Below, one piece after another: positions 3,733-28,453 of a stretch of DNA of 64,000 bases. The notes beneath the pieces were generated by a model. That model was not told the origin of the DNA. It saw only the letters and a program-made list of their open reading frames with translations, and ran no database searches. The position numbers were made by a program, and so were the translations under genes. The stretch comes from Thermodesulfobacteriota bacterium (GTDB lineage Bacteria > Desulfobacterota > GWC2-55-46 > JADFVP01), in the NCBI GenBank assembly GCA_046754225.1, contig JBHHVI010000004.1, positions 147-64,146 of the forward strand. Direction: 5' to 3'. The first letter of the stretch is position 1, and the number at the start of each line of letters is the position of its first letter.

Positions 3733-3851
3733 GGGGTTTAGCCCCGGGCCGGGAGGCTCCCGGCCGTAAATTCCTTGAATATAAAATCAGCGCCTTTAAG
3801 AGGCGGGGCCGGGTTTAAAGACCCTGTCCCGTGACTTATGTGATAGGGCTA

Positions 3852-3880
3852 CGCACCCTGAAAAGGTGCGGCGCTTTTTT
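3852..3880 (+). terminator. rho-independent terminator
   Basis: CGCACC-ctgaaaa-GGTGCG then gcgc TTTTTT. Confidence 0.7.
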
Positions 3881-4019
3881 CGTCTAAATGGCGATTTTTT
3901 GTTTATGGAATACCCGGTTTAAGTGGCGGTCCATCAAAAAACCCCAAAGGACAGCGGCCCGGCTTGCGGCCGGGGAATTAAACTATAAGAGATTAAAAAA
4001 ACCAGGAGGAAGGTATAAG

Positions 4020-12726: not shown

Positions 12727-12817
12727 GGAGAGATGCCCGAGAGGCTGAAGGGGGCTGACTCGAAATCAGTTGTTCCGCTTTGCGGAACCGGGGGTTCAAA
12801 TCCCTCTCTCTCCGCCA
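12727..12817 (+). tRNA. tRNA-Ser (anticodon CGA)
   Basis: Cloverleaf with acceptor GGAGAGA/TCTCTCC, anticodon loop ctCGAaa, long variable arm (class II), T-loop TTCAAAT, 3' CCA encoded. Confidence 0.9.
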
Positions 12818-12879
12818 GATTTTTTCCGGCGCCCGAGGTGTCTCCGGAGTAAATGGACTTTAAGAAAGGTTTTTTGACT

Positions 12880-12970
12880 GGAGAGATGCCCGAGCGGCCG
12901 AAGGGGCACGACTGGAAATCGTGTGTACATTTATCGTGTACCGAGGGTTCGAATCCCTCTCTCTCCGCCA
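12880..12970 (+). tRNA. tRNA-Ser (anticodon GGA)
   Basis: Same acceptor and T arm as the upstream tRNA, anticodon loop ctGGAaa, long variable arm, CCA encoded. Confidence 0.9.
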
Positions 12971-12988
12971 GTTTGAGTTTAACTCGCG

Positions 12989-13122
12989 TTTACGGACGCC
13001 GCTGATAGCCGGGTCTTGCGCAATGGGAAAGTCTCAAACCCCGCCAGGTCCGGAAGGAAGCAACGGTAGCGGCTTAAACCCATGTGCCGCAAGGGTGCCT
13101 GGCTATCAGCGGCGTCCGTAAA
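12989..13122 (+). ncRNA. ffs: SRP RNA (4.5S RNA)
   Basis: Conserved domain IV motif CCAGGUCCGGAAGGAAGCAAC. The 22-nt 5' arm tttacggacgccgctgatagcc is perfectly complementary to the 3' arm ggctatcagcggcgtccgtaaa. Classic position upstream of dnaX. Ends are approximate. Confidence 0.9.
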
Positions 13123-25150: not shown

Positions 25151-26683
25151 ATGGGAGACAAAGAGGAGATGCCGGAAATTAAAAATGCCGGCCCGGAGCC
25201 AGGGGACGGCGAAGGTGATGTCAAAGGCGAGACGCTCCCCGAAGCCGCCGCCCCGGAGACGGTGGTGCAGCCCCCGAGCGCGGTACGCGACCCTGTAAGG
25301 GCGTACCTCCGGGAGATGGGTTCCGTCGTTCTTCTTACCAGGGAAGAAGAGGTGGAACTGGCTAAAAGGGTGGAGGAGGGGAGGGCCGCCATCACGAGGG
25401 AGTTTCTGCGGTCGCTGCTTGTAGTGGAAGAACTGAACGCACTTAAAAAGAGGCTTTCCGAGAGGAAAGGGCTCGAGGAGGAGGTTCTCGAATTTGATGA
25501 TTATGAAGGGCTTTTAAGCGAGAACGAAGATGACCTTGAGGAGGTCTTTAATGAGATAGAGGAAATAAACAGATTATATAAGAAGGTCAGCTCAAAAAAG
25601 GGGGCGACGAAGTCTCAGAGGGCCAGGCTCCTGACGATCCTTCTTGATGTTGAGAAAAAGAGTAATATATTCGACAGGGTGATTGACAGGCTGCAGGAAA
25701 GCGAGGAGGAACTTATAAGCCTCAAGGGCAAGAGGGCCTCTATGGAGAAGGCCCTTAAAGGCGGCAGGTATAAGGCCGGGGCCGCGGCCGGGAAGATGAA
25801 AGGCGGTGAGGGCAAGGCCGCCGGGGCGAGGGCCGGGTTATTAAAGGAGTTGAGGCTCAATAAAAAGAGGGAGAAGGAGATTATAGAGGAGACGGGGCTG
25901 AGTTTCGAGGAGCTCACCGAGGTGCTCAACGCCCTTGCCGCATGGGAAGATTATATTGAGCAGGCGAAAGAGAGGCTTATAAAGGCTAACCTCAGGCTTG
26001 TGGTGAGCATAGCGCGCAGATACATAAACAGGGGGCTTCAGTTCCTCGACCTCATTCAGGAAGGCAATATCGGCCTTATGCGGGCCGTTGAGAAGTTCGA
26101 GTACCAGAGGGGCTATAAATTTTCCACATACGCCACGTGGTGGATACGCCAGGCCATCTCCCGGGCCATAGCCGACCAGGCGCGCACCATACGCATACCC
26201 GTGCACATGATAGAGACCATCAATAAACTGATGCGCTCCTCCCATTATTTCGTGCAGGAGAACGGCAGGGAACCTCACCCCGAAGAGCTGGCGGAGAAGA
26301 TGTTGATGCCCTTTGACAAAGTGAGAAAGATATTGAAGATCGCCAAGGAGCCCATCAGTCTGGAGACCCCCGTGGGCGACGAGGGGGACAGCCTGCTCGG
26401 CGACTTCATCGAGGACAAGGAGGCCGTAATCCCCCATGACGAGATTATAAGTAACGACCTTACAGGCCACATGAACGAGGTGCTCTCCACGCTTTCACCC
26501 CGCGAGGAGAAGGTCCTGAGGATGAGGTTCGGCATCGGGGAGTCCAAGGACCATACCCTCGAAGAGGTTGGGGGGTATTTTAACGTCACCCGAGAGAGGA
26601 TCCGCCAGATTGAGGCGAAGGCCCTGAGGAAATTAAGGCATCCCAAGAGGTGCAGAAAATTAAAGTCCTTTTCGGAAAATTAA
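25151..26683 (+). CDS. rpoD: RNA polymerase sigma factor RpoD (sigma70)
   Basis: Regions 1.2-4.2 ([49 protein letters not shown]); dnaG-rpoD synteny. Confidence 0.95.
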
Positions 26684-26830
26684 GAAGGTTTAAGATTAAA
26701 TATCGCATTTTTTAATGGACTGTCTCTCTTGCCGGTTCTATATTTTCTATTTTTTAGGTTTTTTAACTATTTGAATTTATTGTATTTTACAAGAGAAGTT
26801 ACATTTTTTATAAAAAATATCAATTTCCTA

Positions 26831-26858
26831 TTGACATCACTTCTTTTTTCTGTATAAT
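26831..26858 (+). promoter_or_regulatory. near-consensus sigma70 promoter with upstream A/T-rich UP-like tracts
   Basis: TTGACA (26831-36), 16 nt spacer ending in TG, TATAAT (26853-58), preceded by ttttttataaaaaatatcaatttccta. Lies in a ~340 bp AT-rich spacer unlike the flanking GC-rich DNA. Confidence 0.65.
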
Positions 26859-26915
26859 AGGCATTAAGATTTAAAGCCTGGCGCTCAGGATGGGCCCGGG
26901 CTTTCAGGTGAAGAC

Positions 26916-26957
26916 GCCATTATATAACCATCCCGGTTATATACATGGCTTTTTTTT
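26916..26957 (+). terminator. intrinsic-terminator-like hairpin within the 5' leader of the cytochrome gene (candidate attenuator)
   Basis: gccat-tatataacc-atccc-ggttatata-c-atggc (14 bp stem with one bulged C) followed by TTTTTTTTgcTTTTTT. An upstream alternative pairing tggcg(26880-26884)/cgcca(26914-26918) overlaps the terminator's 5' arm. Confidence 0.5.
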
Positions 26958-27022
26958 GCTTTTTTAAATAAACCTCATTAATTCAAGCTATATCTATTAA
27001 TCAAACTGAAGAAGGGGGCCGC

Positions 27023-28048
27023 GTGAAGAGAAGATTGTTAACAGGCTTATTAGTCTTAACGGCAGCGCTCTTCATTAAAGCGGATATCTCCTCTTCAGCA
27101 ACGGGCACGCAGGGCGTCGCCGGGACCGTTGCCGCGTACACGAATGGTCTCGCCGCCAACGGCATCGTAGGCACAAGGCATAACATGGGCGCCTTCGGCG
27201 GCCCGATACGTACCAATGCCACAACTCAGGTATGCGTCTTCTGCCATACACCTCACCACACGAATCAATCTGCCGCCCCGCTCTGGAACAGGTCCACGGC
27301 CAACTCGACGAGTTATCAGGCTTACGGGTCTACCATAGGCGGCAGTAATATAACGACGGTAGACGGAGGCGCCTCCATCGCGTGCCTCAGTTGCCATGAC
27401 GGCGTCACCACCTTTGACAGCATTGTCAACGCCCCTGGAAACGGCGGGATTACCGCAGGCGGTTCCGACCAGCAATGGTCGTTTATAATGGCTGACGTAG
27501 GGTTGGACCTGGGTGCTTGGGACCATTTCGGCACTCCAGGTAATGAGAACGTCTGGTGTACTGCCTGTCACGGCACCGGAGGTTTTGCTCAAGGCCCGAA
27601 CACATGGCAGCGTCTCTCTATTGGCACGGACCTCACAAACGACCACCCCGTCTCGGTTACCTATTCCGGCAACACAAAGGCGAGCCTCAGGGCAAAGACT
27701 ACCGTACTGGGCACCATAGACCTTACGACCGGGCTCAGCAACACAAACTCATTAAGCGCATATTACCAGGCCATGACCCAGAACCGCTGGGCCGTAAACG
27801 GTTCCATCTCTGACACCGCCAATATCAGCGCTCTCTTGAGGAACGATAAGGTGGAGTGCAGTTCGTGCCACGACCCGCACTTCAAGAACCTCTCCTGGGA
27901 CGAGGCGGATGCCTCCTATGACGCCAATTATACAATCGGCGGCGCGAGCAAATGGTGCAGCGGGGACGCTTGTATCGACGGCCTCTTCTTAAGAAGGGTG
28001 GGCGGCAACACGGGCTCAGGCGTTTGCAGGACCTGCCACGATAAATAA
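27023..28048 (+). CDS. secreted pentaheme c-type cytochrome, Thr/Ser/Asn/Gly-rich, OmcS-like by motif pattern
   Basis: Sec signal peptide (MKRRLLTGLLVLTAALFIKA). Five CxxCH motifs: CVFCH, CLSCH, CTACH, CSSCH(DPH) and a C-terminal CRTCHDK*. Low-complexity T/S/N/G-rich composition and many N-x-S/T sequons. GTG start with RBS AGGGGG. Confidence 0.75.
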   Translation: MKRRLLTGLLVLTAALFIKADISSSATGTQGVAGTVAAYTNGLAANGIVGTRHNMGAFGGPIRTNATTQVCVFCHTPHHTNQSAAPLWNRSTANSTSYQAYGSTIGGSNITTVDGGASIACLSCHDGVTTFDSIVNAPGNGGITAGGSDQQWSFIMADVGLDLGAWDHFGTPGNENVWCTACHGTGGFAQGPNTWQRLSIGTDLTNDHPVSVTYSGNTKASLRAKTTVLGTIDLTTGLSNTNSLSAYYQAMTQNRWAVNGSISDTANISALLRNDKVECSSCHDPHFKNLSWDEADASYDANYTIGGASKWCSGDACIDGLFLRRVGGNTGSGVCRTCHDK

Positions 28049-28134: not shown

Positions 28135-28164
28135 AGGCCTCTCTTTCAAAAGAGAGGCCTTTTA
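28135..28164 (+). terminator. rho-independent terminator after the cytochrome gene
   Basis: AGGCCTCTCTT-tcaa-AAGAGAGGCCT followed by TTTT. Confidence 0.8.
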
Positions 28165-28280: not shown

Positions 28281-28308
28281 TTGACTTGGCCCGTCTTTCT
28301 GTTATAAT
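28281..28308 (+). promoter_or_regulatory. sigma70 promoter with extended -10 for rpsU
   Basis: TTGACT (28281-86), 16 nt spacer, TGtTATAAT (28300-08); about 145 nt structured leader before rpsU. Confidence 0.55.
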
Positions 28309-28453
28309 CTTCAGGCCTAAAAGCCATACCGTGAGTAGTAAAGGCCCCTCCGGCCTGTTACCCTTTTACGGGCGCGAGGAGCCTTTTAACACCTGCATGG
28401 TGTAATATTCTCAGCAGGGAAAAAATTTTTTATCAGGAGGAGGTGTATTATTT

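Follow-up and report, generated by a model that had tools for sequence, protein, structure and literature searches.

A conserved two-hairpin leader overlapping a terminator upstream of OmcE-like cytochrome genes, a candidate transcription attenuator in uncultured Thermodesulfobacteriota

We analyzed a stretch of 64,000 nucleotides (here called the window) from a metagenome-assembled genome (MAG) of Thermodesulfobacteriota. A 339-nt AT-rich spacer separates rpoD (positions 25151 to 26683) from a GTG-initiated open reading frame of 341 amino acids, and this spacer holds the leader described here (Table 1). The product of the reading frame carries the Pfam domains PF09699 and PF14522. In phmmer searches it matched PDB entry 7tfs (E = 3e-15, residues 40 to 149 plus 198 to 222) and 9yuq, another filament entry (E = 1e-11). 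Entry 7TFS is the tetraheme nanowire OmcE (PMC12954529). By homology to this filament subunit, the protein is OmcE-like and a putative filament former, although OmcE has four hemes in 232 amino acids and the window protein has five CXXCH motifs in a longer chain. The same MAG contains a second copy of the cytochrome (paralog P0002, 79% identical), and homologs elsewhere often occur as two to four tandem paralogs (loci L006, L020, and L027). In locus L206, a gene for a PilZ-domain (c-di-GMP-binding) protein (1446 to 1829) adjoins the cytochrome on its downstream side.

Downstream of the window cytochrome, rpsU has a near-consensus promoter of its own (TTGACT at 28281 to 28286, a gap of 16 nt, and TATAAT at 28303 to 28308), which is kept in L009 and L211. 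This promoter and the terminator-like hairpin past the cytochrome stop codon suggest that the cytochrome forms a monocistronic unit between rpoD and rpsU. The 5' untranslated region (UTR) of rpsU (~145 nt, GC rich, within 28281 to 28453) had no Rfam match and may be an S21 leader. Elsewhere in the window, positions 12727 to 13107 hold two tRNA-Ser genes (anticodons CGA and GGA) with a small SRP RNA directly after them.

Table 1. Features of the leader and cytochrome locus, in window coordinates
Feature	Position	Strand	Basis or remark
AT-rich stretch 5' of the -35 box	26790..26830	+	GC content 0.18-0.26
Sigma-70-type promoter, TTGACA (26831-36), 16 nt, TATAAT (26853-58)	26831..26858	+	12/12 consensus positions
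P1/P2 hairpin	26873..26904	+	Minimum-free-energy fold and covariation
Linker CA, P1/P2 to P3	26905..26906	+	0-9 nt, median 3, sequence not conserved (33 leaders)
P3 mini-hairpin GGUG[AAGA]CGCC	26907..26918	+	Pairing in homologs; putative antiterminator
Intrinsic terminator, 14-bp stem with one bulge, loop AUCCC, U8	26916..26957	+	Sequence, fold, covariation
Remaining 5' UTR, Shine-Dalgarno-like GAAGAAGGGGG at 27009-19	26958..27022	+	Read from sequence
OmcE-like multiheme c-type cytochrome gene, 341 aa, five CXXCH	27023..28048	+	ORF, Pfam, PDB matches
Terminator-like hairpin GGCCUCUCUUU / AAAGAGAGGCC, then UUUU	28136..28163	+	88 nt past cytochrome stop; read from sequence

A first-pass annotation of the same DNA had proposed that a structured leader of ~160 nt separates a consensus promoter from the start of the cytochrome gene. 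Transcription beginning near position 26865 would give ~158 nt up to the GTG codon at 27023, and the proposal is borne out both by the promoter (a match at 12/12 positions) and by the predicted fold. RNAfold gave -39 kcal/mol for positions 26865 to 26957 (z = -4.9; none of 200 shuffled sequences was as stable), with the region folding into two independent hairpins, 26873 to 26904 and the terminator. The AT-rich stretch before the promoter possibly acts as an UP element or as a site for a regulator. A conserved element, TTAATTT(T), is represented there by caatttcc in the window, and a TTAATTT-like element directly abuts the -35 box on its 5' side in the majority of the 33 leaders described below. 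A sigma-70 promoter lies just 5' of the leader in 31/33 homologs and has the exact TTGACA-16-TATAAT form in 17 of the 33. Rfam 15 contained no family matching the leader when the whole window was scanned at gathering thresholds, and only noise was returned for the window leader and two homologs at E <= 10 with permissive filters. The latter scan agrees with the first reading of the DNA, in which no known riboswitch class had been recognized.

Homologous leaders were collected with an nhmmer search of the spacer against 80 loci encoding cytochrome homologs, which recovered the promoter, leader, and terminator 5' of many of these genes. From 21 aligned leaders (alignment A1) we built a covariance model, R1, which detects a single copy of the element in the 64-kb window (E = 7e-16). 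At E <= 1e-4, R1 identified 29 leaders, namely, that of the window and 28 others, which come from 27 loci among the 30 closest. The 50 loci of distant homologs (Proteobacteria, Geothrix, and others) gave none. Sixteen loci of distant homologs gave nothing at Rfam gathering thresholds, indicating that no other known leader, e.g., GEMM, takes its place there. Look-ups of more homologs added four further distinct leaders, for a total of 33. A core-only model without the terminator (R2) yielded no added instances, such as translational versions. In a metagenome pattern scan, all 80 among the matches listed scored 14 to 22 bits with R1, compared with 27 to 78 bits for true leaders, and are thus chance matches; no association with a gene other than a cytochrome emerged from those listed.

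All 33 leaders lie on the gene strand, and the gene directly 3' is OmcE-like or the leading member of a tandem set; the survey covered cytochrome-anchored loci only, so the exclusiveness of this association is biased by design. In L020, two adjacent paralogs each have a leader of their own. The cassette is kept 5' of cytochrome homologs that are only 47 to 63% identical, and it occurs in two unrelated contexts. In the first, the order is rpoD-[leader-cytochrome]-rpsU, and the wider order mutS2-dnaG-rpoD-[cytochrome]-rpsU-acs-hisS is kept in relatives whose cytochromes are only 47 to 60% identical. In the second, an NHL-repeat gene precedes and a PPIase gene follows the cytochrome, with cytochrome c genes also found downstream. 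The carriers are related MAGs of Thermodesulfobacteriota or "Deltaproteobacteria." Two loci with close cytochrome homologs, L028 (3719 and 3809) and L016 (3775 and 3863), do not have the full motif; variant-type hairpins, CU[GAUGRC]GG, are still present upstream of the gene in both.

The terminator-like hairpin and T-runs that had been noted at 26916 to 26957 are present and are supported by folding and covariation. The 5' arm of the stem is GCCAUUAUAUAACC (26916 to 26929), followed by the loop at 26930 to 26934 and a 3' arm at 26935 to 26949 with a single bulged C at 26944. The tail consists of U8 (26950 to 26957), GC, and U6. The predicted stability is -16.7 kcal/mol in the window, with a median of -20.8 kcal/mol across the leaders. 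Conservation of the hairpin in related genomes had been named as a check: a terminator of the same kind lies 3' of the core motif in 33/33 leaders, and it covaries in the 29 that were aligned, with its helices paired in 94.8% and 87.6% of cells and nine compensatory pairs. A simple terminator scan did not list the hairpin at 26916 to 26949, presumably because of the bulged C, and we accept the terminator as real because of its folding and its covariation in the 29 homologs. With a stable stem-loop, an adjoining U-tract, and covariation, the region is confirmed as a genuine intrinsic terminator as far as sequence and modeled structure can tell, termination itself being a prediction.

Upstream of the terminator, the first hairpin consists of a long stem, P1, and an apical part, P2. 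P1 pairs AAAGCCUGG with CCGGGCUUU and leaves C26882 bulged out, and P2 is formed by GCUC and GGGC (26883 to 26886 and 26892 to 26895) around the pentaloop AGGAU (26887 to 26891). The P2 apex has the invariant form U-C-[A-N-G-R-N]-G-G, i.e., a pentaloop closed by a C-G pair and a U.G wobble, and the wobble is kept in 29/29 leaders. Within the loop, A occurs in 28/29 sequences and is followed by any nucleotide, G (29/29), R (29/29), and any nucleotide. P2 was paired in 90.9% of cells, with changes on both sides at 5/7 pairs (29 homologs). It continues into a long hairpin in all 33 homologs (median of 12 bp), the internal loops of P1 varying in length and sequence. The loop has 5 nt in the main group (29/33) and 6 nt only in a subgroup of four (L006, L008, L010, and L011), where the apex takes the hexaloop form CU[GARGGC]GG.

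The second hairpin, P3, follows the consensus G-G-Y-R-[A-N-G-R-(N)]-Y-G-C-C. Its 3' strand shares GCC (26916 to 26918) with the 5' base of the terminator, and in 29/29 leaders the same GCC (alignment columns 59 to 61) can also pair with the GGC adjacent to the U-tract. P3 was paired in 97.4% of cells. No variation is seen in the GG and GCC, so that the third pair has either C or U opposite G; the fourth pair is GU in 16, GC in 7, UA in 2, AU in 1, and something else in 3 of the 29 sequences, and a further A-U occurs in L201. The GG of the 5' strand lies outside the terminator yet is invariant in 33/33 leaders. The loop reads A-N-G-R in 29/29 and is 4 to 5 nt long. On its own, P3 has a predicted stability of -2.7 kcal/mol (the median is also -2.7), and as long as the nascent window transcript has not reached the 3' arm of the terminator, P3 is predicted to form with a pair probability of 0.98. 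Taken as a whole, the conserved structure was 90% paired in the 29 homologs versus 36 to 48% in slid controls, with none of 500 shuffles equaling it, and double changes occur at 14 pairs across P2 and the terminator. P3 itself offers little covariation, with two of the four pairs fixed and double changes in only three or four sequences. Part of the conservation of P3 could instead reflect single-strand recognition of GGYGANGR.

We propose that this conserved element acts in cis as a transcription-attenuation leader, that it is OFF by default, and that P3 serves as an antiterminator held in place by what is likely an RNA-binding protein. This reading as a whole has, in our judgment, an even chance of being correct. 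When the strong promoter fires, the nascent RNA would fold P1/P2 and then the terminator, and an RNA of ~93 nt would be released by default. Read-through into the cytochrome gene would require that the marginally stable P3 be held in place; the apical loops of P2 and P3 (A-N-G-R with conserved closing and wobble pairs) would then be the recognition sites of the stabilizing factor, and RNA polymerase would continue into the gene. A stabilized P3 is expected to disable the terminator because it takes up the GCC at the bottom of the terminator stem, beside the U-tract. At intrinsic terminators, losing the G-C pairs that abut the U-tract should abolish termination. An external stabilizer would be needed because the terminator (about -21 kcal/mol) is far more stable than P3 (about -2.7 kcal/mol). 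We infer on these grounds that P3 is the antiterminator and that the default state is OFF, giving mostly the ~93-nt terminated RNA, with both termination and read-through as predictions. The logic of a factor-dependent attenuator, suggested in the first-pass annotation, is upheld, since the base of the terminator is also part of a conserved alternative structure.

By analogy with ANTAR regulators, we tentatively favor a dimeric or multimeric RNA-binding antiterminator protein as the effector; we consider it likelier than a small ligand, with a confidence that falls a little short of even. This preference stems from the pattern of conservation, which is confined to two equivalent apical loops while linkers and internal loops vary freely, from the varying number of P2-type hairpins, and from the lack of covariation between the loops. 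We found no candidate gene for an RNA-binding regulator near any examined locus. A tblastn search of 740 kb (the window plus the loci) with approximate ANTAR (PF03861) probes, a crude and weak probe, gave no match.

The closest known parallel in layout is offered by the targets of ANTAR antiterminators, which have dual hairpins with a conserved A and G in both loops, the second hairpin being embedded in the terminator (PMC3369931; PMC8934654). In these systems, formation of the terminator is the default, and the weak hairpins are stabilized by a dimeric protein (PMC3369931; PMC8934654). As in the EutV/eut, NasR/nasF, and AmiR/amiE leaders, tandem hairpins with a short linker are found here (0 to 9 nt in 33/33 leaders), and the second hairpin covers the 5' base of the terminator in 29/29. 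The loops differ: ANTAR targets have hexaloops with A1/G4, whereas this leader has a pentaloop in P2 and a loop of 4 to 5 nt in P3, with A1/G3 and an invariant U.G wobble. Only the four-member subgroup has a P2 loop of 6 nt, and G occupies position 3 in both loops of 29/29 leaders. Because the loops have 4 to 5 nt with A1/G3 and are not hexaloops with A1/G4, we do not file the leader as an ANTAR target. In addition, ANTAR hairpins are mini-hairpins, whereas P2 sits on the long P1 stem, and ANTAR-controlled genes are concerned with nitrogen and ethanolamine, in contrast to the cytochromes here, near which no ANTAR gene was seen. None of the characterized antiterminator proteins has a target that matches the loop geometry of this leader.

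Other families with similar small loops also fit incompletely. Hairpins bound by CsrA/RsmE (CANGGANG) share a C-G-closed loop that starts with A-N-G, and the CAGGAUG of the window resembles the SELEX consensus; the loop here, however, is one nucleotide shorter, and the sites lie away from the Shine-Dalgarno sequence. Position 4 is G in only 14/29 (P2) and 11/29 (P3) leaders, and only a minority have A at position 5; neither loop thus shows a conserved GGA. TwoAYGGAY RNAs have two hairpins with A-Y-G-G-A-Y-like loops, and some of the loops here read AUGGA or AGGAU. Unlike this element, TwoAYGGAY is not a terminator-coupled leader, and our loops follow ANGR(N) without a conserved GGA and without an Rfam match. 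The guanidine-II (mini-ykkC) riboswitch is built of two hairpins with ACGR loops and a variable linker. It resembles the leader in its two near-identical short loops (ACGR versus ANGR), conserved closing pairs, variable linker, and ON logic. Loop position 2, however, is free here (C in only 4/29 per loop), which makes C-G kissing pairs impossible, and the scan at E <= 10 gave no Rfam match. Guanidine-II also acts on translation, in contrast to the terminator here, and differs in its gene association. Finally, GEMM-I is a terminator-containing structured leader of Geobacter outer-surface and nanowire cytochromes (OmcS and others), and OmcE itself has no GEMM association in Geobacter (PMC1950547). 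The layout of GEMM-I riboswitches (c-di-GMP or cGAMP) is similar, but their sequence and structure are unrelated to this leader, and RF01051 (GEMM-I) did not match three representatives at E <= 10 in cmscan with permissive filters.

The resemblance to such small riboswitches bears on the best-surviving alternative, which is that the leader represents a new riboswitch class. The two A-N-G-R loops would form a minimal aptamer, and a ligand (e.g., a cyclic dinucleotide or a heme-, iron-, or redox-linked metabolite tied to extracellular electron transfer or respiration) would stabilize P3 and turn transcription ON. We consider this possible but doubtful. An aptamer-like conserved core with an overlapping terminator is typical of transcriptional riboswitches, very small two-hairpin riboswitches such as guanidine-II exist, and the loci are without a linked regulator gene. 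GEMM riboswitches govern other extracellular cytochromes of Geobacter (PMC1950547), and the PilZ gene beside the cytochrome in L206 adds a weak hint. Against a ligand, only ~12 nucleotides are conserved, all of them in the apical loops or closing pairs, and neither the junction nor the linker is conserved. A search for loop-loop (kissing) complementarity between P2 and P3 found none, and there was no covariation between the loops. The number of P2-like hairpins, moreover, is one or two, and no Rfam family matched.

That the terminator dominates all predicted folds would also be expected if the element were constitutive, with the terminator damping an over-strong promoter and the 5' hairpin stabilizing the mRNA or the terminated RNA, without any sensing. 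5'-proximal hairpins are known mRNA stabilizers. This explanation seems unlikely, as it leaves the invariant A, G, and R of the loops, the U.G wobble, and the GG of P3 unexplained amid stems that have diverged.

Following a second suggestion of the first-pass annotation, a terminated small RNA (sRNA) of ~90 nt, we considered an independent trans-acting sRNA gene of ~93 nt with the cytochrome transcribed from a separate promoter within 26958 to 27022. This reading received little support, and we judge it very unlikely. The perfect promoter, stable 3' hairpin, and U8 tail are typical of abundant sRNAs, but a promoter scan found no promoter-like site between the terminator and the start codon. 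A free-standing sRNA gene also does not fit an element that, in two unrelated contexts, is always directly 5' of and co-oriented with a cytochrome paralog, with one copy for each tandem paralog. Some sRNAs derived from riboswitches or ANTAR-controlled leaders act in trans, and a terminated leader could likewise have a second, trans-acting role.

The comparative data contradict the antiterminator that had been put forward originally, in which UGGCG would pair with CGCCA at the expense of the P1/P2 hairpin and the terminator. The two complementary pentamers do exist in the window, at positions one base away from those first given (UGGCG at 26879 to 26883 and CGCCA at 26915 to 26919). Tested at alignment columns 15 to 19 and 58 to 62, however, this pairing was possible in just 43% of cells among the 29 homologs, a level reached by 194/500 shuffles and likewise by slid controls. 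Its 5' partner is locked in the covarying P1/P2 hairpin, buried in the P2 stem, and the conserved competitor of the terminator is P3 (26907 to 26918). We regard the UGGCG pairing as highly improbable. We rejected a leader-peptide attenuator, in which AGGUGA of P3 would act as the Shine-Dalgarno sequence or start of a short reading frame controlling the terminator, since the in-frame 19-codon ORF that crosses the terminator in the window (GUG at 26909 to UAA) is not conserved among homologs (absent, 6 to 15 codons long, or in another frame, e.g., in L001, L004, L012, and L024) and conservation is at the level of RNA (GGYRANGR...GCC) and not of peptide, which leaves this reading with next to no probability.

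On the preferred reading, a protein-held antiterminator, the leader is a previously undescribed RNA motif with a known working principle, so far seen only in uncultured Thermodesulfobacteriota-like MAGs. OmcE-type cytochromes polymerize into extracellular "nanowires," which are costly polymers. To our knowledge, the decision when to make nanowires is largely unknown outside Geobacter. The motif would mark dedicated control, after initiation of transcription, of a gene class with a central part in extracellular electron transfer, and it is conserved across an uncultured lineage that is common in groundwater and sediment metagenomes, attached to each gene copy. With about 50 nt and 12 invariant positions, it could serve as an RNA bait for finding the protein or ligand sensor, and the covariance model can be used to search metagenomes for regulated electron-transfer genes. 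A protein effector would make the leader a second loop grammar (A1/G3), next to that of ANTAR, in dual-hairpin antitermination; a ligand would make it a new minimal riboswitch class that switches on a nanowire-type cytochrome by antitermination.

We also observed variation around the P2 hairpin. The string of the P2 apex, CTCANGRNGGG, occurs nine times in the window, compared with 1.5 expected from shuffles. The other eight sites are mostly coding, and none lies in a leader-like structure according to R1 and R2; the excess is probably a codon or composition effect. In L025, the gap between the terminator and the cytochrome holds an array (3737 to 3905) of ~7 tandem units of ~26 nt (accGGCUCACGCAGGUGGGC...), each of which can form a GCUCAC/GUGGGC hairpin with flanks like those of the P2 stem and a different loop. 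Three leaders, those of L026 (3664 to 3682) and the two of L020 (453 to 470 and 2183 to 2200), have an added P2-like hairpin 5' of the core (CUCAUGAAGG and UUCAUGACGG) and therefore three A-N-G-R loops rather than two. The promoters of these three leaders lie 60 to 100 nt further upstream.
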